Shown in pieces: positions 1 to 11,328 of a stretch of 64,000 nucleotides of DNA (within the stretch, counting starts at the first letter, position 1; every line of letters begins with the position of its first letter). This DNA comes from an uncultured Alphaproteobacteria bacterium (GTDB lineage Bacteria > Pseudomonadota > Alphaproteobacteria > Rhizobiales > Xanthobacteraceae). The notes below the pieces were generated by a model. The model had not been told where the DNA came from, ran no database searches, and worked only from the letters and a program-made list of their open reading frames with translations. The DNA lies in assembly GCA_963816745.1 (NCBI GenBank), contig CAWFLQ010000003.1:304187-368186 (forward strand), read 5' to 3'. A program made the position numbers and the translations under genes.

Positions 1-693
1 CATTTGCCGGCGGAATTCACTGTCGCACTGCGGCGAACGCACCGTTCTCGGCCCTCCTGGAAGGCACTTTGACGAACCCATCGGACCGCGAAGGCGCGAT
101 GCAAACAACGCGGCCGTGCGAATGCTCCGCGAGTCCTTTGAGACTCATCTCGCCGGACAGGGGGCTGCTCAGGTACGAAGCGTCCGCCGGCACCGTCATG
201 TTCTTCCGAAAAGATCTGCTTCCCGATGACCGGGTGACCTACACGAACGCGAAGGGACGCGAGACCTACAAGCAGGTCGTTGGTTTCAGCAAGGTGCTGA
301 ACGCCCACTGGCATCTCGGGATGCGTGCGACCGTCAGGCTCGGCGAAGACGCTCGTCGTCCGGCTGCGGCCCTACGTGGTGTTCACGCGGGACGGAAGGG
401 AGCCGCTGAAGGACGCTGAGGAGATGACCAAGATGCGCCGGCGGTTCTGCAAGAGCTGGTTCAACCACGTCTGGCGACCGCTCTTCCAGGCGTTCTACGA
501 ATTCTTCGGAAATGGGCTACCTAGCGTTCGCATAGATCTTGGCGAGCATCGGAGTTGGGCGGTTGCCGGCCAGGGACTAAAGGTGATGAGCCGTATGCGG
601 ATGCCCTTCGACCTGGACGCGATCGATACCGAGATCGAACCGGATGAGCCGGACGAGAGCGACATCGACGAGAGCGACGAGGAAGAGGAATGA
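1..693 (+). pseudogene. 3' portion of the gene directly upstream of the short pAgo. By position it is the expected effector-APAZ partner, with the effector domain outside the window. One apparent frame switch.
   Basis: Frame 3 is open from the window edge and looks coding to about 350 (..FFRKDLLPDDRVTYTNAKGRETYKQVVGFSKVLNAHWHLGMRATVRLGE). Coding signal then continues in the +1 frame (..LVVRLRPYVVFTRDGREPLKD..), which is closed upstream by TGA 298-300. That frame ends at TGA 691-693, overlapping the pAgo ATG (ATGA). The APAZ assignment is contextual only. Confidence 0.45.
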
Positions 694-2222
694 CCGCAGC
701 GTGGCACGCGATCCATCTCGACGAACCAAAGCTGATGTTCGGTCATGACCAGACCGCTGAGCATCCTAAGGACGGTCTCTTTCTCTTCGGTCCGGTCGAC
801 TCTAACCAGAACCCAGTCCGCATGGACGTCGGTGTCATCGGCACGCCGGTAGGTCTGCAGAAGTACTTGAAGTGGGTGTCGTCGATCGAGAGATTCATCG
901 ACGTGCCGCCGCCCAATCCGAAGCGCAAACGCAACGACGCCAATACGTTCGTGTGGCCCGGTTTCGAGGCCGTCTACGGGGCTTCGTGGCCTAGCAAGCC
1001 TTTCGCGACGTGTCTTATTGATGCGGCCGAGCTTAGCCGCCGGATCCTCGACGCCGACCGGCACCAGGCGATCTATTCGGCCGTCGCGCTATACGAGGAG
1101 GCGCTGCGGAAGTACCTGCGCGAGGAGGACGCGAGGCCAGCACTGTGGTTCGCGGTGGTTCCGGACGAAGTCTTCAAGTACGGGCGGCCGCAATCGACAG
1201 TGCCGCCGAAGCTGCGGACGCCGGGAACCAGACGGCTGGGCATGAAGGCGGCCCGCTCCATCCTGAACAAGGGATCATTGTTCGCGGAGGAGATGGAAGC
1301 TGCTGCTATGTACGAATACGAACTGAACTTCCACAACCAACTCAAGGCGAGGGTGATGGACACTAGCCAGGTAATCCAGGTGGTAAAGGAGATCACGCTG
1401 GAGCCGCCGCTCCCGGCCGAGAACGCGCGCTCGACCATGCAGGATCCGGCGACTATCGCCTGGAATCTCTCTACTACCAGCTTCTATAAGACCGGCGGAA
1501 AGCCATGGCGTCTGGCGCGATTGCGGGACGGGGTGTGCTACGTGGGGCTTGTCTTCAAACGCATCGAGCGGCCCAGTGGTGGCGACAACGCCTGCTGCGG
1601 GGCGCAAATGTTTCTCGGATCTGGCGACGGGCTTGTCTTCAGGGGCGCTGTCGGGCCCTGGTACTCGGAGACGAAGGACCAATTTCATCTCGACCAGGAT
1701 CAGGCGGCGAAGCTGATGGAGATGATCGTCCGCTCCTATAGGGATATCCACCGCGCTCCTCCCGCCGAACTCTTCATTCACGGCAAGACCAACTTCGATC
1801 AAAACGAATGGGCAGGGTTCGCGAGCGCAGTGCCGCAGACGACGAAGCTCGTCGGTGTGCAGATCCGGAATGGAGCGGATGTGAAGCTCTTCCGATACGG
1901 TGCAAATGCGGTGCTGCGCGGAACAGCTCTCGTTACCTCTCCGACGTCGGGATATTTGTGGAGCAGAGGCTACATTCCGCGTCTGCGCACGTACCCGGGG
2001 CGCGAGGTCCCCAATCCTCTGACAGTCGAGATCAGGCAGGGCACGGCCGACATCGAACGGGTAATCAATGATGTGATGTCGCTGACCAAGCTTAACTTCA
2101 ACGCCGCCGAATATTGCGACGGCTTACCGGTGACACTGAGGTTCGCGGATCTCGTTGGCGAAATACTGACCGCAGGCCCCATTACGCCTCATGCGCCGCT
2201 TCCGTTCAAGTTCTACATCTGA
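690..2222 (+). CDS. Short prokaryotic Argonaute (MID + PIWI only, catalytically inactive type)
   Basis: 510 aa with typical short-pAgo landmarks. N-terminus: HLDEPKLMFGHDQ..DGLFLFGP. MID-like motif: FHNQLK. PIWI strings: FYKTGGKPWRL, CYVGLVFKR, ACCGAQMFL, ELFIHGKTNF, PNPLTVEI, TKLNFNA. C-terminus: LPVTLRFADLVGEIL...FKFYI. The canonical catalytic positions appear replaced (GxDV becomes GLVF, RDG becomes HGK). Confidence 0.85.
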   Translation: MTAAWHAIHLDEPKLMFGHDQTAEHPKDGLFLFGPVDSNQNPVRMDVGVIGTPVGLQKYLKWVSSIERFIDVPPPNPKRKRNDANTFVWPGFEAVYGASWPSKPFATCLIDAAELSRRILDADRHQAIYSAVALYEEALRKYLREEDARPALWFAVVPDEVFKYGRPQSTVPPKLRTPGTRRLGMKAARSILNKGSLFAEEMEAAAMYEYELNFHNQLKARVMDTSQVIQVVKEITLEPPLPAENARSTMQDPATIAWNLSTTSFYKTGGKPWRLARLRDGVCYVGLVFKRIERPSGGDNACCGAQMFLGSGDGLVFRGAVGPWYSETKDQFHLDQDQAAKLMEMIVRSYRDIHRAPPAELFIHGKTNFDQNEWAGFASAVPQTTKLVGVQIRNGADVKLFRYGANAVLRGTALVTSPTSGYLWSRGYIPRLRTYPGREVPNPLTVEIRQGTADIERVINDVMSLTKLNFNAAEYCDGLPVTLRFADLVGEILTAGPITPHAPLPFKFYI

Positions 2223-2390
2223 GCCTGCGACTTGCTCCACGCGGTCAGCGTCCAAGCCCTGTTGCCGGATCGCGTGGCACCTTTCTATGTTAGCGCCGAT
2301 CCGTGTACAAACCAGTATCACTAAACAAACCAAAGCCCTTTTCTGTCCGAATCGGACTCTACAACCCTCCAGCGCCGAAAGGACGCGGCC

Positions 2391-3647
2391 ATGGGTCCAA
2401 TCACACTTTTCGATAAATCGTTTGTCGAGATGCTGAACCTCGACGAAGCCACAATGTTTGACGTTCTATACAAATCGGTGATCTGTCCGATATTCTACAC
2501 CGAAGTCCTCGCCGATCTTTCAAAGGTGCCACGTGATCAGCGCACTGTCGAACGCATCGTTGCTGACGTGGCCCGCAAAACGCCAATCATGCACGCAACA
2601 CCGAATGTGTCGCACTCCAAACTCTGTCTCGGCGAGTTGCTTGGTCACTCGATTGAGATGCGCGGCGTTCCAGCCGTTGCTGGCGGCAGGGCCGTCAGGC
2701 AGAGCGACGGAAAAGTTGGCATTGTCTTCGACGAGGCAAGCGAGGCCAAGGCATTTGACCGTTGGCAACGTGGAAAATTTTATGAACTTGAGCGAGAATT
2801 CGCTTCCCGCTGGCGTGAGCAGTTGAAGGCTGCAAACCATGCGGACATGGCGAAGCTTGCCAAAACGGCCCTCAAAATCAGCGCCTCCCCAAAGACCTTG
2901 GATGAAGCTCTAGCGATCGCCAAAGAGGTTGTGCAGGGGGCTGGGCAACGGTTCTGGATTCTCAAGACCGCGTACGCGCTGCTTGGACTCGAACCGAGGC
3001 AATGGAATGCTGTACTGACTCGCTGGAAGGAAATGGGAGGACCACCGCTGCCGCAATACGCCCCATACACGGCATACTGCTTGTTGGTGGACGTTTTCTT
3101 CTATGTTGCAGTGGACAAAAGGCTAATCTCGCCCGATCGTCCAAGTAACCGAACGGATATCGCGTATCTGTATTATTTGCCGTTCGCAATGATGTTCGTG
3201 TCGAACGACAAGCTGCACAAGAAAACAGTGCCGCTGTTTCTTACGGATAGGCAGCATTTCGTCTCGGGAGACGAGCTGAAGAAAGACCTACAGGCGCTTG
3301 ATGCGCACTATTCCGCATTGCCCGAAGCTGAGAGGGCGCAGGGCTTATTCCGGCTCGCGTCAACGCCTCCAAACGATGACGCATTTCTGACTACACGAAT
3401 CTGGAAACGGTTCGGACTGAACTTCGAGCGATCAAAGCCGTTTGACCACAATGAAAACAAGGAAACGAACGACAAAATCGTTGCTGAGATGAAAAAGTTG
3501 ATGGCCGCAGCGAAAACGCCCGAACCGGGAATGTTCACCCCAGGCGAGTTGAATGACCCCAACGCAATAACGATCCAGAGGCTTGTACCTCTACAGCGAG
3601 GCAAGTGGCGCCTGATGCCGCCGGGTGTTGAGGCGGACGCTTCATAA
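2391..3647 (+). CDS. Hypothetical protein, possibly a split PIN-like nuclease fold
   Basis: 418-aa ORF with an AAGGA-type RBS about 8 nt upstream, visibly less GC-rich than its neighbours. Acidic motifs are spaced as in PIN domains: ITLFDKSF (N-terminus), FYTEVLADL, then NRTDIAYLYYLPFAMMFVSNDKL after a long insert. The fold call is motif-level only. Confidence 0.5.
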   Translation: MGPITLFDKSFVEMLNLDEATMFDVLYKSVICPIFYTEVLADLSKVPRDQRTVERIVADVARKTPIMHATPNVSHSKLCLGELLGHSIEMRGVPAVAGGRAVRQSDGKVGIVFDEASEAKAFDRWQRGKFYELEREFASRWREQLKAANHADMAKLAKTALKISASPKTLDEALAIAKEVVQGAGQRFWILKTAYALLGLEPRQWNAVLTRWKEMGGPPLPQYAPYTAYCLLVDVFFYVAVDKRLISPDRPSNRTDIAYLYYLPFAMMFVSNDKLHKKTVPLFLTDRQHFVSGDELKKDLQALDAHYSALPEAERAQGLFRLASTPPNDDAFLTTRIWKRFGLNFERSKPFDHNENKETNDKIVAEMKKLMAAAKTPEPGMFTPGELNDPNAITIQRLVPLQRGKWRLMPPGVEADAS

Positions 3648-3819
3648 TGGGACGGGCCTGGACGGGCGGGCGAGCCGATTGGGGCTAAGTGGGTCAGCCT
3701 CTGCGAACGAACACAGACGGCAAGGCCTTGGCAAACCACCTCAAGCCTGACTGTGAATTGCCTTCGGTCGCGACCACGACGGCAAGGCGAGGCTAAAATC
3801 AGGGTTTGACAGGGCACCC

Positions 3820-4950
3820 ATGGCCGATCTCCAGAAAATAGTCGATGAGCTCTCGAAGCTCACACTTCGCGAGGCCACCGATCTCGCGAAGATGCTGAGA
3901 GAGAGATGGAGTGCAGGCGCGCTGCTTTTCGACGATCGCAAGAGGACGCGGACGGATCCTCTCGGTCTCGGCGAGAGCCTGTTCACGTTCTACGATGAGT
4001 GCGGCAGGCACGGCTACGACGAATTCAGATCGGTTGTGAACGGCTGGCTTGCAAAGATGCCAGCGGCCGATCGGGACGAGCTGATGACGCGTATGCGGGA
4101 TGGCGGCAACCGCGAGTTCGGAGCTTCGCTCACCGAGCTTGCCAGCCACGCGTTCATTCTCGGTTTGGGGTATCGTGCCAGCGCCCACCCGGAAATCTCT
4201 GGGACGAAGAAGCGGCCCGACTTCGCCGCAACGGACCAGCAAGGCACCGAGACGCTCGCGTACATCGAAGTGACTACCGTAAACCCGCCCTCCGCCGAAA
4301 AGGCTGACAGGAACCGCGAAAATTCCGTCTACAACGCCATCGACCGCGCCGAAATCCCAGCAGGCTCGGCCCTCGGCTACAGTCTCGTTCGCGCGGCGAA
4401 AAACAGCCCTCCCCTCAAACGTCTCGTCTCCGATGTCGAACGCTGGGCCGCGGACAATGCCGAAACGGCGAAGACCGAGGAGGTGAGCAAGACCTTCACC
4501 GTCGGCGATTGGACGATCGAGCTCGATCTCTACTCCGGCGGCACCAATCCCGATCCTGGAGTCCATGCGATCGGCGTAGTCGATATGGGCGGCGGGATCA
4601 TCTCACCGCATAAGGATCTACGTGCGGCTTTGGAGACCAAATCCAAGCGATATGGAGCGCTCGACAAGCCATATCTGATCATTGTCGCAGACGGAAAAGA
4701 GCAGCTCTTCAGCAAAGACTCGATCAAATCAGCGCTCATCGAAGCCGTGCTCGGAGATGAGATCGTCCAATTCAGGGGCGGAGTGCCTTACACCATCGCA
4801 TGGCTCGGAGACTTCGGAGACCACCTCGAACTGCTGACGCGAGATTGCGATTTTAATCCTCGCAAGCCTCGACCTGGGAAGCTGCCGTTCTACGATCGAA
4901 CTACATCTGCAAAAGCTAAGACCTTGTGCCGATTCTGTGCGGTCTTCTGA
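3820..4950 (+). CDS. Hypothetical protein with an N-terminal ribosomal L7/L12-NTD-like segment and a PD-(D/E)xK-like core
   Basis: 376-aa ORF. Residues 1-31 ([31 protein letters not shown]) closely resemble the Rhizobiales RplL N-terminus as I recall it ([31 protein letters not shown]). Further in, [32 protein letters not shown] fits an E..PD..(D/E)x(K/T) restriction-endonuclease-like pattern. Confidence 0.55.
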   Translation: [376 protein letters not shown]

Positions 4951-4961
4951 GTAATCCGTGC

Positions 4962-5090
4962 AACGTGCCCTACCTCACCGCGATGCTGGAAGGCGGCAAC
5001 CTGGACTCGTTCCTAGCGAGCACCGGCGCCGACGCGCCCAAGGTCGAGGCGCAGGGATATGCATCGCCGAGCAGCGTCGTGCAGTAGGGT
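4962..5090 (+). pseudogene. Internal fragment of a GH1 beta-glucosidase paralog
   Basis: The nucleotide stretch ..gccctacctcaccgcgatgctggaaggcgg..gactcgttcct.gcgagc.ccggcgccgacgcgcccaaggtcgaggcgcagg.. closely matches 14210-14310 of the full GH1 gene (APYLTAMLEG..DSFLAS.GADAPKVEAQ). No start codon or surrounding GH1 sequence is present. Confidence 0.6.
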
Positions 5091-5153
5091 CCCGAGAACA
5101 CCCTCGTAAGGTCGAGCGTACGAAGGCCATCGAGCGGTCGCATCGCTCGCCCC

Positions 5154-5861
5154 TCAAGCAAACGTCGCGGCCAGCTCGGCGAAATTGGCCACGATGAGGT
5201 CGGGCTGATGCGGCGTCTGGCCGAACGGCCGCTTGCGCCGGTCGATGAACGCCGTCCGCATGCCGTAGGATTTCGCGCCGATGCAGTCGAAGGCGTGATT
5301 GGCGACGAAGAGGATGCTCGAGCGATCGACGCCGATGATCTCGTCGGCCTTCGCGTAGGTCTTCCAGTGCGGCTTGAAATAGCCCGCCTCCTGCACCGAA
5401 ATGACGTGATCGAACGGAAAGCCGATGTGCGGCCCGGCGGCCTTCAGCATGTCGCGGTCACCGTTCGAGAGGATCGCGAGCTTGTATCCCTTGGACCGCA
5501 GCTTCTCGAGTGCCGCGACGACGTCGGGAAACGGCTTCAGCTTCTCGATCTCGGCTACGAGCCAGCGCACCTCGTCCTGCGTGTAAGCGATGCCGCAGCG
5601 GTCCATGACATAGGAGACCGCGCGATGCCCGATCTGCCGGTACGGCGTGTGCCCACGATCGCACAGCGCGTCGATCATGGAGTTCTCGAAGTGGGTGCGG
5701 CGCCACCATGTGACGAAGCTGTTCGGCTAGCCGTCCCAGCCTTTCCGTTTGAGGAAGGGCGTGACGGCCTCCGTCAGTCCCTTCTGCATATCGACGATGG
5801 TGCCGTACTGATCGAACGCAAGCGCCTTGATTTCGCGCTTGAGGACCTCAGGCTTTTCCAT
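5154..5861 (-). pseudogene. HAD-superfamily hydrolase (2-haloacid dehalogenase type II-like) interrupted by an in-frame TAG
   Basis: The N-terminal part is MEKPEVLKREIKALAFDQYGTIVDM..KGWDG. An in-frame TAG follows (complement of 5727-5729). The same frame then continues PNSFVTWWRRTHFENSMIDAL...LSNGDRDML...FVANHAFDCIGAKSYGMRTAFIDR. Confidence 0.75.
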
Positions 5862-6008
5862 GCGATTTCCACGGCTCGCGTGAGCCTCTCCTGATTCAGA
5901 AAATCGCGAACGCGACGGGGTGTTTGCGACCGACAATAGACCTGCAACCGCAATCTCGGCAACGCGAGCCGGGAATTTGTGGAATGACCGGTTGGGGTCT
6001 TATCGCAA

Positions 6009-9000
6009 TCAAGCATTTTTCAATCTCGACCTGGCTCCGATCAGATCGGCGGTGTCAAAACCCTCGCTGAAGCATCCGTAGACCTCGGCGAGCTGCGGGC
6101 GATATCTGTCGGCGCTTTGTCTCAGCTCGTACAGGTCATAAAGACTCACGCAAGCTCTAAGTTCGAGGGATTTCGCTTTCTGTTGGCGCGCGACGTCAAG
6201 GCCCTTGCAGAGATAATGCTCCGCCTGATCCAGATCGCGGCGTGATCGTAAATATGCTTCCCCGAGCAGCCGATATATTTCCGCTGCGTAGAAGCGCACG
6301 GAGTTCTCATCATCAAGCCCCGATTGCGCCTGGTTCAAAAAATCGAACGCCTGCGCGTAACGTGCATTCGTTATGCACGCATCCGCCAGCAATCCCAGCG
6401 CATACGATTCAAACAACAAGGCGCCGGTGGCCCGCTGTTTTTCCAAACCGCCCTGGATCTCGGCAATACCTTGCTCAAACTCGCCTTGCTGGGCGATGGC
6501 CCATCCCCGCAAAATCAAAGCCATGGCCAGATAGTGCACGAACTCATGCTCTTCGCAGAGTGCGATTGCCGCCTCAGCCTGGCTCGCGACAACAGCAGCC
6601 TCACCGCGAAACTGATGGACCCGGAGGCTTATCGTTCGTGCCATTGCCTCGCTGAACGGATGCCGGGATGCATCCGCATGACGGCGCGCCTCGGCGCAAA
6701 TCCGCAACGCCCGATCGGGATAGCCGAGCAACCACAGCGCGAGGCCGTCGTATAGTCTTACATGAACTCGCGGGTCTTGCGCCGACAGGTCAAGATACGC
6801 CGCGGCCTTGCCGTCTTCACACAAGCCGATGCTGCGTTCCAACGCGGCGTGGGCGGCGGCAAGTTTCCCGCGTGCAAACAAGGTAAAGCCCAGAGCCTCC
6901 TGGGCAAGAACCCCGGAAACCGAGTCATCTACATTCTCGGCTGCATTCACGAGATGCTCGGCAAGGATTTGCGCTTCACCAAGCGCCGCACGAAGGAAAT
7001 TCCAGGACCACAAGCCAAACACCGCAGGCAAGGTGTGTTCGTCGAACCCGCCCTCTTTGCACAGCTCAAGTGCCCGCGTGTACGCCCGCTTCACACTGTC
7101 AACGCTCCAGCCCTTGGTGGCCCGCAGTGAGTGCCCCAGCGACGTTTGAAGCAGCAGCTCCGACTTGTTGCGCAGCAGCGGGTCGTCGATATTGGGAAGG
7201 AGCTCCAAACCACGAGCAAGATGGTTTTGTGCCTCGGCATTGGCCGAGCGCCGGGCTGCCTGCTGTCCAGCCTTGAGCCAGTAGTCGATGGCGGGCTCGA
7301 CGAGGCCGGCTTCCGTGAAGTGATGTGCCACGATTTCCGGCTGGCTCGCCACGATGCCGGCAAACTTCTCCTCGAGCGCGCGCGCGATCCTGCCGTGCAA
7401 TTGCTGCCGACGGGTCTTGAGCAGGCTCTCATAGGCCGCGTCTCTCACCAGCGCATGCTTGAAGCTGTAGACGGCTTCCGGCGGTTCGCCGCGGCGGAAC
7501 ACGAGCTCCGCCTGCTCGAGCTGGGCGAGCGCATGCTTCAACGCGGCCTCGTCGCGACCGGCCAACGCGCGCACCAAGGCATAGGAGAACTCACGGCCGA
7601 TGGCGGCGCCGATCTGGCTGACCTCCTTCACCGGCGCCAAGCGGTCGAGCCGCGCCATCAAAGAGTCTTGCAGGGTGTCCGGAATGGCGAGGGGCGGCAG
7701 CGGGCCGTCGAGCCGGTAGCCCTCGCCGTCTGCGACCAGAATGCCCGCTTCCAGCACCGCTTTGGTGAGCTCCTCGACGAACAGGGGGTTCCCGTCGGTC
7801 TTGGCGACGATCTGTTGCATCACTTCGGCGGGCAGCGCACGGCCGCCGGTCACTCGCGTGGCCATGCTTTCAACGTCGTTGCGGTCGAGGCGACCGAGCC
7901 TCAACGTGCCGACGTTGGGGAGACCAATCCAGGGCGGCTCGAACTCCGGGCGAGCGGTGATGAGTGCAAGGACGGGCAGCTGGCGCACGCGCTCGACGGT
8001 CAGATCGATCAGCTCGAGCGAGGTCGCATCCGCCCATTGCGCGTCCTCGAACGAGAGCAGGATCGGTTGCCGGCGGGCGAGAGCCTCGAGCTGATCGAGC
8101 AGTGCCGCGAGCGTCCGGCGGCGTTGCTGCGTCGAGCTGAGCGCCAGCGGCGGATACCGCTCACCGGCCGGGATCGACAGCAGCGCGGCAAAAAGCGGCG
8201 CCACGGCCTGGACCGGCGCAGCGCCCGTGGCCAGGATCGCTTCGAGCTTGTCCAGCCGTTGCTCGGAAGTATCGTCCGCCTTGAACCCCGCCGCTCGCTC
8301 CAACTGGGCGATGACCGGACGAAGCGCGCTGCTGGCATGGTGGGGCGAGCATTGGTAACGCAAGCGCGCGTGCGGTTCGCCGGCGATACGCTCGGCGAGA
8401 GCCGCCGCAACGCGGGACTTGCCGATCCCCGGCTCGCCCGAGATCAACACGGTCTGCCCTTCGCCCTTCCAGGCGAGGCGTTGGCGTTCCAGCAGGAAAT
8501 CCAGCTCGGCCTCGCGGCCGATGAGATCGGTCAGCTCCGCCACACGGACAGCCTCGAAGCGGCTCTCGGAATCCGATACGCCCTCGACCGCCCACGCTGC
8601 GACCGGCCCGGCAATACCCCTGACCTCGTGCCGGCCAAGATCCCGCAGACGGAACCAGTCCCCGAGCAGGCGGCGCGTGGAGGCGGCGACGACGACCGTC
8701 CCAGGCTCGGCCAAGGACTGAAGGCGGGCTGCAACGTTCGGCGTGTCCCCGACCACGGCGTGCTCCCGCAACGCGCCCTCGCGGCTGAGGTCGCCGACCA
8801 TGACCAGACCGGTCGCGATGCCAATGCGGACCGCGAGCGGTTCCGCGGCGCGCGTCTCCAGCCGCGCAACGGCAGCAACGATATCGAGGGCCGCCCGCAC
8901 GGTTCGCTCGGCATCGTCTTCGTGCGCGCGCGGATAGCCGAAATAAGCCAATATCCCGTCGCCCCGAAACTCTCCGATGAAACCGTCGTAGTCCAGCATG

Positions 9001-9356
9001 ATCCGGGCGCAGGCGGCGTGATAGGCATCCATCACAGCGTTCATGTCCTCCGGATCAAGCCGGGCTGCGAGCGCCGTCGAGCCCACCAGATCGCAGATCA
9101 TCACGGTGAGGTGACGGCGCTCGGCCTCCTGACGCGACACGGATTCGGTCGTTGTTTCACTCAGCGCCGGCGCGGCCCCACCAAGCTCGGCGATCGCGCG
9201 CAAAAGCTTGCGGCGATGCCCCAGCAGAACGCCGAGATCTTTCAGGTCTTGCTCCGTCACGTCGCGGATCACGGAGAGGTCAATGGCGTTGTCGGCGAAG
9301 CGTTGCGCGTACTCGGAGAGGCCGAGCTTTTCGAGCCAGTCCGCGATCTGCTGCAT
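6009..9356 (-). CDS. Multidomain signalling protein: SAM domain, class III adenylate/guanylate cyclase, AAA/STAND-type ATPase and TPR repeats
   Basis: SAM-like N-terminus: MQQIADWLEKLGLSEYAQRFADNAIDLSVIRDVTEQDLKDLGV. Cyclase core: VMICDLVGSTALAARL..FRGDGILAYFGYP. Walker A: GEPGIGKSR. The C-terminal half is a long TPR-like region. Confidence 0.85.
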   Translation of the reverse strand: MQQIADWLEKLGLSEYAQRFADNAIDLSVIRDVTEQDLKDLGVLLGHRRKLLRAIAELGGAAPALSETTTESVSRQEAERRHLTVMICDLVGSTALAARLDPEDMNAVMDAYHAACARIMLDYDGFIGEFRGDGILAYFGYPRAHEDDAERTVRAALDIVAAVARLETRAAEPLAVRIGIATGLVMVGDLSREGALREHAVVGDTPNVAARLQSLAEPGTVVVAASTRRLLGDWFRLRDLGRHEVRGIAGPVAAWAVEGVSDSESRFEAVRVAELTDLIGREAELDFLLERQRLAWKGEGQTVLISGEPGIGKSRVAAALAERIAGEPHARLRYQCSPHHASSALRPVIAQLERAAGFKADDTSEQRLDKLEAILATGAAPVQAVAPLFAALLSIPAGERYPPLALSSTQQRRRTLAALLDQLEALARRQPILLSFEDAQWADATSLELIDLTVERVRQLPVLALITARPEFEPPWIGLPNVGTLRLGRLDRNDVESMATRVTGGRALPAEVMQQIVAKTDGNPLFVEELTKAVLEAGILVADGEGYRLDGPLPPLAIPDTLQDSLMARLDRLAPVKEVSQIGAAIGREFSYALVRALAGRDEAALKHALAQLEQAELVFRRGEPPEAVYSFKHALVRDAAYESLLKTRRQQLHGRIARALEEKFAGIVASQPEIVAHHFTEAGLVEPAIDYWLKAGQQAARRSANAEAQNHLARGLELLPNIDDPLLRNKSELLLQTSLGHSLRATKGWSVDSVKRAYTRALELCKEGGFDEHTLPAVFGLWSWNFLRAALGEAQILAEHLVNAAENVDDSVSGVLAQEALGFTLFARGKLAAAHAALERSIGLCEDGKAAAYLDLSAQDPRVHVRLYDGLALWLLGYPDRALRICAEARRHADASRHPFSEAMARTISLRVHQFRGEAAVVASQAEAAIALCEEHEFVHYLAMALILRGWAIAQQGEFEQGIAEIQGGLEKQRATGALLFESYALGLLADACITNARYAQAFDFLNQAQSGLDDENSVRFYAAEIYRLLGEAYLRSRRDLDQAEHYLCKGLDVARQQKAKSLELRACVSLYDLYELRQSADRYRPQLAEVYGCFSEGFDTADLIGARSRLKNA

Positions 9357-9659
9357 TGCGACCCCTCCCCGCGGATTCACCGCGGCCTAACGGCGCTCTT
9401 GGACGAGGCCGATGGAGAGCATTCAAAAAATTCTTCGCAAGTATCACTGCACCAGTCGGTCTGAACAACCGCGCAATCCGCGAGCCCGATGTCTTTAAGG
9501 ATCAAAACGCGATCGAAGCGAGCCTATCGAGTCCGCTTGCTCCTGAATGCAACCGTCCGGCGAACATTCGGATCGCCAAGTTCGCGCCAAGAGCGAACAC
9601 TGCCGCTTCCGCCAGTTGCATGATCCGATGTAGCCTAAGGTAGAGTTGCTCAATGGGAC

Positions 9660-10207
9660 GTGCCGCGCTTGCAATTGACCCGCCGCGATCTTGCGAAAAT
9701 TGCCGGGGCGGGAGCCGTCGGAGTGGCGGCGCCGGCCAGCGCGCAGCCGAGCGAGGGCGCCGCCCCCCAGCGCGAATCCGGGCGCGGCTTTCCAAATGGT
9801 TTTCTCTGGGGCACGGCGACCGCCGCCTATCAGATCGAAGGCGCCGTGAACGCCGACGGCCGCGGCCCCTCGATCTGGGACACCTTCGCGCACACTCTGG
9901 GCAAGACCCACAACAACGACACCGGCGACGTCGCCGCCGATCACTATCACCGCTGCCGGACGACATACAGTCGATGAAGGCGCTCGGCATGGCGGCGTAT
10001 CGGTTCTCGATCGCCTGGCCGCGCATCTTTCCGCAAGGTACCGGCGCGCCCAATCCGAAGGGGCTCGACTTCTATAACGCCCTAGTCAACCAGCTCATCG
10101 CCAACGGCATCGAGCCGTTCGCGACGCTCTATCACTGGGACCTGCCGCAGGCCCAGCAGGATCGCGGCGGCTGGGAGACGCGCGACATCGCCAACGCGTT
10201 CGCGGGC
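9660..10207 (+). pseudogene. N-terminal relic (about 180 codons) of a second GH1 beta-glucosidase copy, frameshifted and truncated
   Basis: Near-identical at nucleotide level to 13362-13894 (Tat signal [19 protein letters not shown], then [15 protein letters not shown]). One base is missing near 9951-9964 relative to the full copy, which changes frame. Similarity ends abruptly at about 10205. Confidence 0.8.
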
Positions 10208-10233
10208 TAGTTAGGTTCCCTGGGAGAAACGCC

Positions 10234-11328
10234 ATGTCAGACGTCACCCGTCGTGGTTTGCTCAGCAGCGCGGCAGCCGTCACCGCGACTGCGCTCACAT
10301 CGCCAGTCGAGCAAGTGTCCGCTACCGAAGTCTCGACGCTTAGGCCGGGCGAAGCGGTGATGCTGCTGCCAACCGCCGCGCACCGGAGCGAGGATGGCGC
10401 CCAATGGGTGGTGCCACTCCACGCCTGGGTCTACGTGCCTCAGAACAGCCACCTGCGACGCGGAGCGATCGCCGAGCTCTTGAAACGCCGCTACGGTCTC
10501 GACGTCACGTCGGCGAGCGCTCCGTATTTCGACACTCGGGTGAACCTACTGCTCGCCGACAACAAGGGCGGCCGGACTATCGTTGTCGACGTGGCCGGAG
10601 TACGCGTGACGTTGCCGCCGACGGCCGCCAATGGCCATACCCGGACGCTAGTCCGCATTCCAGTCTCGGCGGCGACACCCGACGGCGCGCGTCTGACAAT
10701 CAATGCAGTGTTGCCGGCGCCTGTGTCGCGTAGAATCGAGACGAGCGCTCATCTGATCGGACCAGCGGGTTTGTCGATAATCTCGGACATCGACGACACC
10801 GTGAAGATCACCCATGTCCTCGACCGCCACCGCATGTGGGAGGCGACGTTCTACAAGCCGTTCGAGGCCGTCGGCGGAATGCCTGCCGCCTATCACCGGC
10901 TCGCAGCCACAGGCGTGGCCTTCCACTACGTCTCGTCGAGCCCATGGCATCTGGCAAAGCCGCTGTTGGATTTCCTGGATGCAAACGGCTTGCCGCTCTC
11001 ATCGATCGCGCTGAAGCAGGTCCGCCTCAAAGATCGCACTAGGCTCGACATCCTCAGGCCCGGCCGCGAGACCAAACCGCCAGAAATCGAAGCCATCCTG
11101 ACAAAGTATCCCGGGCGCCGGTTCATCTTGATCGGCGATAGCGGCGAGGACGATCCGGAAGTCTATGCGGATGCGCTGCATCGCCACCCGAAGCAGATCG
11201 CGCGGATCTACATCCGCAACATCACCGCCGCACGCCGCGACGATGCGCGCTTCGCGAAGGCATTCGCTGGCGTGGAGTCGGCGCAGTGGGTTCTGTTCGA
11301 GGACGCGGAAGAGATCCGGGGGGAGTGA
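10234..11328 (+). CDS. App1-family (DUF2183) phosphatidate-phosphatase-like protein with a Tat-type signal
   Basis: Signal: MSDVTRRGLLSSAAAVTATA. Motifs: ISDIDDTVKITHV and LIGDSGEDDPEVY. Confidence 0.7.
   Translation: MSDVTRRGLLSSAAAVTATALTSPVEQVSATEVSTLRPGEAVMLLPTAAHRSEDGAQWVVPLHAWVYVPQNSHLRRGAIAELLKRRYGLDVTSASAPYFDTRVNLLLADNKGGRTIVVDVAGVRVTLPPTAANGHTRTLVRIPVSAATPDGARLTINAVLPAPVSRRIETSAHLIGPAGLSIISDIDDTVKITHVLDRHRMWEATFYKPFEAVGGMPAAYHRLAATGVAFHYVSSSPWHLAKPLLDFLDANGLPLSSIALKQVRLKDRTRLDILRPGRETKPPEIEAILTKYPGRRFILIGDSGEDDPEVYADALHRHPKQIARIYIRNITAARRDDARFAKAFAGVESAQWVLFEDAEEIRGE

Follow-up and report, generated by a model that had tools for sequence, protein, structure and literature searches.

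The short prokaryotic Argonaute (pAgo) locus at the left end of the DNA stretch analysed here is best explained as a two-gene SPARTA system, probably broken, that lies beside independent stand-alone genes, the arrangement being an island adjacency in a decaying patch; we give this reading a probability of about 0.8. The stretch comprises 64,000 nt of contig CAWFLQ010000003.1 from an uncultured alphaproteobacterium. This full length is referred to as the window, and all positions are in window coordinates. The map of open reading frames (ORFs) shows the pAgo gene (690–2222, 510 aa) followed on the + strand by ORF3 (2391–3647, 418 aa) and ORF4 (3820–4950, 376 aa), with intergenic gaps of 168 nt and 172 nt, which reproduces the two co-oriented ORFs and the gaps of about 170 nt noted in an earlier reading of the sequence alone (the sequence-only reading). 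That reading had offered the two downstream genes either as accessory effectors or sensors of the pAgo or as independent neighbours in a defence island. The proteins were compared with the Pfam, NCBIfam, PHROGs and PADLOC profile libraries and with PDB sequences, and structural models were compared with PDB and BFVD using Foldseek. Genomic contexts were collected for seven SPARTA systems other than that of the window, for the ORF3 family (80 metagenome loci, together with 585 kb of flanking sequence, and four viral-contig loci) and for the ORF4 family (five distinct contexts); L-numbers (L001 and so on) denote comparison loci fetched from other sequences, and P-numbers (P0122 and so on) homologous proteins.

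The product of the pAgo gene is matched across its whole length by the PADLOC model pAgo_I (683 bits), and a phmmer search of PDB sequences aligned its residues 7–510 end to end with the pAgos of solved SPARTA complexes (8ifk, 8fex and 8qlo; E 2e-119) of clade S2A, which includes MapSPARTA and CrtSPARTA. No match to the Pfam Piwi model was obtained for this protein, which reflects a limit of that model and does not mean that the fold is absent. As judged from these alignments, the protein is a full-length short pAgo of the SPARTA type, consisting of MID and PIWI domains only (~500 aa). The original pAgo call is thus borne out by pAgo-specific models, not by Pfam Piwi. The proposed ATGA coupling to the upstream gene is likewise present, with the pAgo start codon (ATG, 690–692) overlapping the stop codon of its partner (TGA, 691–693), and the same 4-nt overlap is seen in relatives. 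The pAgo gene has a ratio of nonsynonymous to synonymous substitution rates (dN/dS) of 0.045 with respect to its counterpart in L096, and the two sequences cease to be homologous at the DNA level exactly where the pAgo gene stops (nt 2222).

The upstream partner enters the window at about codon 231, and codons ~231–462 (693 nt) are present. The PADLOC model Aga_TIR-PNTD1-PNTD2 matches nt 69–416 and 325–690 in two different frames (E 5e-26), and tblastn gives 79% amino acid identity to the TIR-APAZ ortholog at L096:6616–8004 (76% at the nucleotide level). The L096 ortholog is an intact protein of 462 aa with a TIR_2 domain and aligns to solved TIR-APAZ chains (E 4e-61), and TIR_2 is found in all orthologs at 84–89% pAgo identity. 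On this homology, the upstream gene codes for the APAZ half of a TIR-APAZ protein, and hence the locus is a SPARTA. In such systems, a heterodimer of pAgo and TIR-APAZ takes up a small guide RNA and, on binding complementary single-stranded DNA of an invader, oligomerises, whereupon the TIR domains hydrolyse NAD(P)+ and cause cell death or arrest in a form of abortive infection (Koopal et al. 2022, PMC9097488).

In contrast to known SPARTA systems, four breaks disrupt the visible part of the TIR-APAZ frame, and the TIR domain falls outside the window. The DNA alignment to L096 places four net 1-nt frame-breaking indels at about nt 33, 77, 157 and 349. The first 350 nt thus contain four indels relative to intact orthologs, whereas pAgo, ORF3 and ORF4, which span ~3.8 kb, have none. 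Further long ORFs of the window (600–1125 codons) are also unbroken; the damage is therefore local. The sequence-only reading was right in assigning an APAZ-type partner, but had missed the frame breaks, and likewise the truncation of ORF4 described below. As assembled, the two SPARTA genes are not both intact ORFs: the pAgo gene is whole, and the TIR-APAZ gene is frame-broken, so that the effector is probably dead. Two relatives, L001 (10001–11503, 88% pAgo identity) and L002 (3462–4924, 84%), have a pAgo gene that lacks its first 10–20 codons and have lost TIR-APAZ altogether, and decay of SPARTA thus seems recurrent in this clade.

A comparison of genomic contexts indicates that ORF3 and ORF4 do not travel with SPARTA. 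Relatives at 84–89% pAgo identity form intact, overlapping TIR-APAZ and pAgo operons in differing genomic settings, and the gene found 3' of pAgo encodes either an unknown protein of ~330 aa (L096, L002, L099/100 and plasmid L112) or a caspase-like peptidase (L097/98). The window differs from several close relatives in lacking this ~330-aa third gene. In L103–L106, the SPARTA (64% pAgo identity) adjoins a BREX cluster (BrxL, PglZ, PglX) on the opposite strand, which is a typical defence island. Searches with tblastn found ORF3 and ORF4 in none of the seven other SPARTA contexts. From the opposite direction, a SPARTA occurs near an ORF3 homolog in L047 and L058 alone among the 80 metagenome and four viral-contig loci, and the 585 kb of flank of the metagenome loci hold no ORF4 homolog. 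The five ORF4-family contexts contain neither pAgo nor an ORF3 homolog; they consist of metabolic genes, a RES/Fic/HEPN island in a region resembling an integrative and conjugative element, a transposon-rich region, a relaxase/integrase element and an integrase-flanked block. A conserved ORF3–ORF4 two-gene module was also considered and rejected, as the two genes co-occur in no other locus examined.

L047 and L058 represent one lineage, being 97.5% identical across a shared block and different to the left of pAgo. The block (6159–11260, low G+C) encodes a complete SPARTA on the − strand, with a TIR-APAZ of 470 aa and a pAgo of 511 aa, and adjoins copper-resistance genes. The ORF3 homolog lies upstream of TIR-APAZ on the + strand, and is therefore divergent, with an ORF of 187 aa between the two. 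Co-occurrence with SPARTA is thus seen in none of the five contexts for ORF4 and in one lineage for ORF3. The contexts examined from the pAgo, ORF3 and ORF4 sides all speak against linkage and do not support a role of the two genes as accessory effectors or sensors. They support independent neighbours in a defence island, with SPARTA relatives carrying other downstream genes. These contexts agree with a survey of 283 short pAgos and the five genes to either side of them, in which the APAZ protein was the sole specific associate (PMC9097488). The SiAgo-Aga1-Aga2 system likewise has a short pAgo followed by more genes on the same strand; its extra proteins are conserved partners (PMC11788926), whereas those of the window are not conserved with pAgo in the relatives examined.

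ORF3 belongs to a family of more than 1198 homologs, all unannotated, patchily distributed and single-gene. No match was found in the Pfam, NCBIfam, PHROG or PADLOC profile libraries. The residues that are invariant in the family alignment include D24, E38, D42, D256 and D273, and D8 is conserved at a level of at least 90%. The AlphaFold2 (AF2) model (pLDDT 88) has an order of strands and helices compatible with a PIN core split by a helical insertion of ~175 residues. The PIN fold as such has α/β/α layers, three in all, and a parallel sheet of five strands. Acidic residues are positioned after β1 (D8), in α3 (E38), before β4 (D256) and after β4 (D273). The modelled topology and acidic residues would fit PIN nucleases, VapC-like or FEN-like with helical insertions, but ORF3 differs from them in having no PIN profile match, even with the insertion removed, and no significant Foldseek match. 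Pfam PIN profiles matched neither ORF3, nor 31 family members, nor nine insertion-removed constructs; a PDB profile search with the family returned nothing, and Foldseek found no match to the model better than E 0.09 in PDB and BFVD. VapC/PIN proteins for a profile–profile test of ORF3 were absent from the ~1 Mb of fetched loci. The PIN-like label of the sequence-only reading, therefore, comes down to motifs and topology, and the profile and fold searches gave it no support. ORF3 may possibly be a metal-dependent nuclease with a PIN-like core and a large helical insertion.

Genes for restriction (types I and IV), ThsB, AriA, AbiTii, Mrr, HNH and the type IV secretion system (T4SS) are found directly beside ORF3 homologs, TIR genes also occur in the neighbourhoods, and housekeeping genes (MnmE, ribosomal S9, KdpC) are frequent as well. 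Clustering of all flanking ORFs gave a largest recurrent neighbour family that is present in only 4 of the 80 loci. Relatives of ORF3 occur on the four viral contigs and on one conjugative plasmid, all without pAgo; in phage genomes, neither ORF3 nor ORF4 was found. Such heterogeneous defence, mobile and housekeeping neighbours are typical of a gene that stands alone and frequently inserts into variable or defence-related regions, and ORF3 is most likely a stand-alone protein carried as cargo of defence islands or mobile elements. The G+C content of ORF3 (0.535, compared with 0.60 for pAgo and 0.64 for the window) points to a separate acquisition.

A family profile search with ORF4 yielded 3816 representative clusters at E ≤ 1e-3, with members typically of 380–425 aa. 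Four residues, R70, E150, K274 and Y278, are invariant in 97 diverse members, and H123, P124, P133, D134 and F135 are near-invariant (D134 at least 90%); the window copy retains the four invariant residues and D134. The canonical ExK motif reads E-V-T in ORF4. The PADLOC model PD-T7-5 matches 71 of the 97 members (best E 1e-13) and PD-T7-1 matches 27, and the window protein aligns at E 3e-27 to a plasmid homolog (L102) that itself matches PD-T7-5 at E 1e-8. PD-T7-1 and PD-T7-5 are single-gene anti-phage systems identified by functional selection in E. coli (Vassallo et al. 2022, PMC9519451) and are listed among PD(D/E)XK nuclease defence genes (PMC10952713). For P0122, a full-length homolog modelled with AF2 (pLDDT 83), the top Foldseek match was a restriction endonuclease-like fold, 3ijm, albeit a weak one (E 0.07, probability 0.57), followed by likewise weak but thematically consistent matches to R2 RLE, BpuSI and the DREN domain of SPARDA. 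Indirectly, via the family, these data support placing ORF4 in a very large group of PD-(D/E)xK proteins with PD-T7-5 and PD-T7-1 as relatives. The PD-(D/E)xK-like core predicted by the sequence-only reading accordingly holds at the level of the family, not as a direct match of the window copy. As with these two systems, ORF4-family genes stand alone, and they are borne on mobile elements or plasmids; on contigs of IMG/VR, ORF4 was not found.

The N-terminus of ORF4, described earlier as unusual, resembles the N-terminal domain (NTD) of ribosomal protein L7/L12. Residues 1–32 (nt 3820–3915) match PF16320 with 22.7 bits (E 8e-5), compared with a gathering score of 25 bits, and 13 of 26 family members match the domain model (best E 2.7e-8), P0122 exceeding the cut-off with 29.8 bits. 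This dimerisation/L10-binding-like module is an add-on of the clade to which the window copy belongs (P0122–P0182), and P0216 and P0218 have a GatB/YqeY domain in its place. Both N-terminal modules come from the translation apparatus, a hint that they might target or dock the proteins to ribosomes or tRNA.

Besides bearing this added module, the window copy differs from PD-T7-5/PD-T7-1 in lacking the conserved C-terminal domain. Its homology to the family is confined to aa 1–326 (nt 3820–4797), after which ~50 unrelated read-through codons stand in place of the β-rich C-terminal ~95 residues that the family conserves; the missing residues are found nowhere else in the whole window. By this comparison ORF4 is 3'-truncated and, having lost the C-terminal domain, probably inactive. 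Immediately beyond, a search of the ORFs of 4950–5200 against Pfam identified, on the − strand, positions 1–24 of CoA_transf_3 at 5063–5134 (E 9e-4), a stub that sits directly downstream of a haloacid dehalogenase (HAD) gene. The HAD gene (TIGR01428, E 1e-37) has an in-frame TAG (GWDG*PNSF) and is likely a pseudogene. The truncation of ORF4 and the CoA-transferase stub place a junction, produced by deletion or insertion, between nt ~4797 and ~5063, at which ORF4 lost its 3' end and the CoA-transferase gene most of its length. The sequence-only reading had ended the block at a relic of a GH1 gene: a gene relic does mark the island edge, but the six-frame reading has no GH1 motif and Pfam gives CoA_transf_3 only at 4950–5200, and GH1 was rejected in favour of the CoA-transferase stub.

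We propose that nt 1–5950 form a patch of defence genes that a Bradyrhizobium-like alphaproteobacterium acquired horizontally and that have partly decayed. A canonical SPARTA operon, with TIR-APAZ overlapping the short pAgo by ATGA, occupies the left edge, its effector probably dead or its assembly locally wrong. ORF3 would be an independently acquired single gene of lower G+C, from a family with ever-changing neighbourhoods, and ORF4 an inactivated PD-T7-5-like nuclease that would work on its own. At the right boundary, the deletion or insertion junction would have clipped ORF4 and the chromosomal CoA-transferase, next to the HAD gene with its nonsense codon.

Several observations weigh against this explanation. 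A promoter and terminator scan of 2100–5300 gave signals no better than those of shuffled sequence, which do not set the genes apart. The ORF3 homolog of L047/L058 lies within 1 kb of a SPARTA whose pAgo is 46% identical to that of the window, which makes a loose link between ORF3 and SPARTA conceivable. ORF4 itself gives no match to the PADLOC PD-T7-5 model, its link to that system running via family members. The TIR part of the partner falls to the left of window position 1. Finally, the frame-corrected APAZ region has a dN/dS of 0.11, equal to that of intact ortholog pairs, and no in-frame stops, which means that the indels are either very recent or that the consensus is locally wrong.

The last of these points bears on the possibility that the SPARTA operon is intact and functional, and that the four TIR-APAZ indels are consensus errors or strain-mixture artefacts of metagenome assembly. 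The APAZ region, with a dN below that of intact ortholog pairs, is unlike a product of neutral decay, and the closest relatives are metagenome-assembled genomes. However, such errors would need to cluster in 350 nt and spare the ~3.8 kb that follow, and the ORFs of 600–1125 codons elsewhere in the window show no breaks. Moreover, indel errors could not produce the truncation of ORF4, the CoA-transferase stub or the TAG substitution in the HAD gene, and the complete absence of TIR-APAZ from L001 and L002 shows decay within the clade. An intact operon is rather unlikely. The damage of other kinds in the neighbouring genes, the losses in L001 and L002 and the inability of indel errors to explain this other damage favour real decay of TIR-APAZ, which we consider probable, and the SPARTA of this locus is probably no longer functional.

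A further possibility is a role of ORF3 as a new defence gene that stands alone and tends to settle in SPARTA hotspots, an association that would be ecological, not mechanistic. The family has many members, each a single gene, and a patchy distribution, its immediate neighbours include defence and T4SS genes, it is present on the four viral contigs and the conjugative plasmid, and it adjoins a SPARTA twice, in the window and in L047/L058. Many of its neighbours are nevertheless housekeeping genes (MnmE, ribosomal S9, KdpC) and PADLOC has no match for ORF3, and the window is the case by which the association was ascertained, which leaves one independent co-occurrence; we regard this possibility as tentative. 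The adjacency to SPARTA in two lineages with pAgos only 46% identical also suggested a wider form of this idea, in which ORF3 would be a widespread, undescribed single-gene PIN-like nuclease of defence or mobile elements that shares SPARTA hotspots or functionally backs SPARTA up, and which appears rather improbable. A three- or four-gene pAgo system, in which ORF3 and/or ORF4 would be co-transcribed with SPARTA as true accessory effectors or sensors, is very improbable and, as judged from the loci compared, largely refuted already: the common orientation, the short gaps without a convincing terminator between the three genes, the nuclease-like character of ORF3 and ORF4 by motif or family, the neighbour of SPARTA in L047/L058 and the existence of three-component short pAgo systems such as SiAgo-Aga1-Aga2 speak for it, and against it speak the 0/7 SPARTA contexts, the failure of ORF3 and ORF4 to occur together elsewhere, the divergent orientation and intervening ORF in L047/L058, the deviating G+C of ORF3 and the truncation of ORF4, the single-gene action of the PD-T7-5 and PD-T7-1 relatives, and the survey of Koopal et al. 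(PMC9097488), which found no additional associated gene.

The coordinates of the features are collected in Table 1. The first chromosomal gene that is intact on the right side of the patch (6009–9380, − strand) encodes a protein of 1123 aa that looks like a signalling protein, its translation showing a SAM-like N-terminus, adenylate/guanylate cyclase-like motifs, a P-loop ATPase and a TPR-like C-terminus.

Table 1. Features at the left end of the window, and positions of the ~330-aa gene in comparison loci.
Feature	Position	Strand	Basis
TIR-APAZ, 3' half (~aa 231–462, APAZ region)	1..693	+	PADLOC Aga_TIR-PNTD1-PNTD2; tblastn and DNA alignment to L096:6616-8004
Short pAgo (MID-PIWI), SPARTA type, intact, 510 aa	690..2222	+	PADLOC pAgo_I; PDB SPARTA pAgos
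ORF3, 418 aa, uncharacterised stand-alone family	2391..3647	+	>1198 homologs; alignment; AF2 model
ORF4, 376 aa, L7/L12-NTD-like N-terminus and PD-(D/E)xK-type core, 3'-truncated	3820..4950	+	Family comparison
Family III CoA-transferase (CaiB/BaiF type) relic, first ~24 codons	5063..5134	−	Pfam CoA_transf_3
Type II haloacid dehalogenase (HAD), in-frame TAG 5727–5729, flanking chromosome	5154..5936	−	NCBIfam TIGR01428
~330-aa gene	L096:9543-10535		
~330-aa gene	L002:4937-5932		
~330-aa gene (split 215+116 aa)	L099:9540-10534		
~330-aa gene	L112:7540-8535		
~330-aa gene	L113:4989-5984		
~330-aa gene	L114:4989-5981		

The comparison loci also contain recurrent genes next to homologs of the genes under study. 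The ~330-aa gene, for which Pfam and PADLOC gave no match, lies 10–22 nt 3' of pAgo in four close SPARTA relatives with differing outer flanks. It is also located ~2 kb from a DUF4365-APAZ and pAgo pair (SPARDA-like) on a B. elkanii plasmid, and no pAgo occurs within 5 kb of the copy that a B. japonicum plasmid carries; in total, 35 plasmid records carry it, 12 of them from Klebsiella. The gene could be a real third SPARTA-linked gene. In two of the five ORF4-family contexts, a trypsin-like peptidase gene is found 50–60 nt 5' of the ORF4 homolog (L088:7173–7952, L089:786–1565 and L091–L093:7150–7941). The L088 peptidase matches Trypsin_2 and the PADLOC candidate PDC-S45 (E 1e-16), the match of L091 being weak, and the peptidase and the ORF4 homolog may form a two-gene module. 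On the Acinetobacter plasmid pBJAB0715 (L101:851–4396), a CBASS-like cluster (oligonucleotide cyclase, AAA ATPase and DUF6602 protein) ends in a 138-aa fragment with homology to the N-terminal portion of ORF4-family proteins, and this arrangement is present on many Acinetobacter plasmids.

The claim of an extended Argonaute system does not hold up, nor does the locus qualify as a novel pAgo architecture. What it contributes is a further SPARTA, probably inactivated, in a well-populated clade of soil alphaproteobacteria. The by-products of the analysis are perhaps worth more, namely the ORF3 family, the L7/L12-NTD-bearing clade of PD-T7-5-like proteins and the ~330-aa gene that follows pAgo. 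The last of these travels with pAgo in several Bradyrhizobium SPARTA loci, although the literature reports no third partner, and the ORF3 family is large and unannotated and behaves like a stand-alone defence-island gene.

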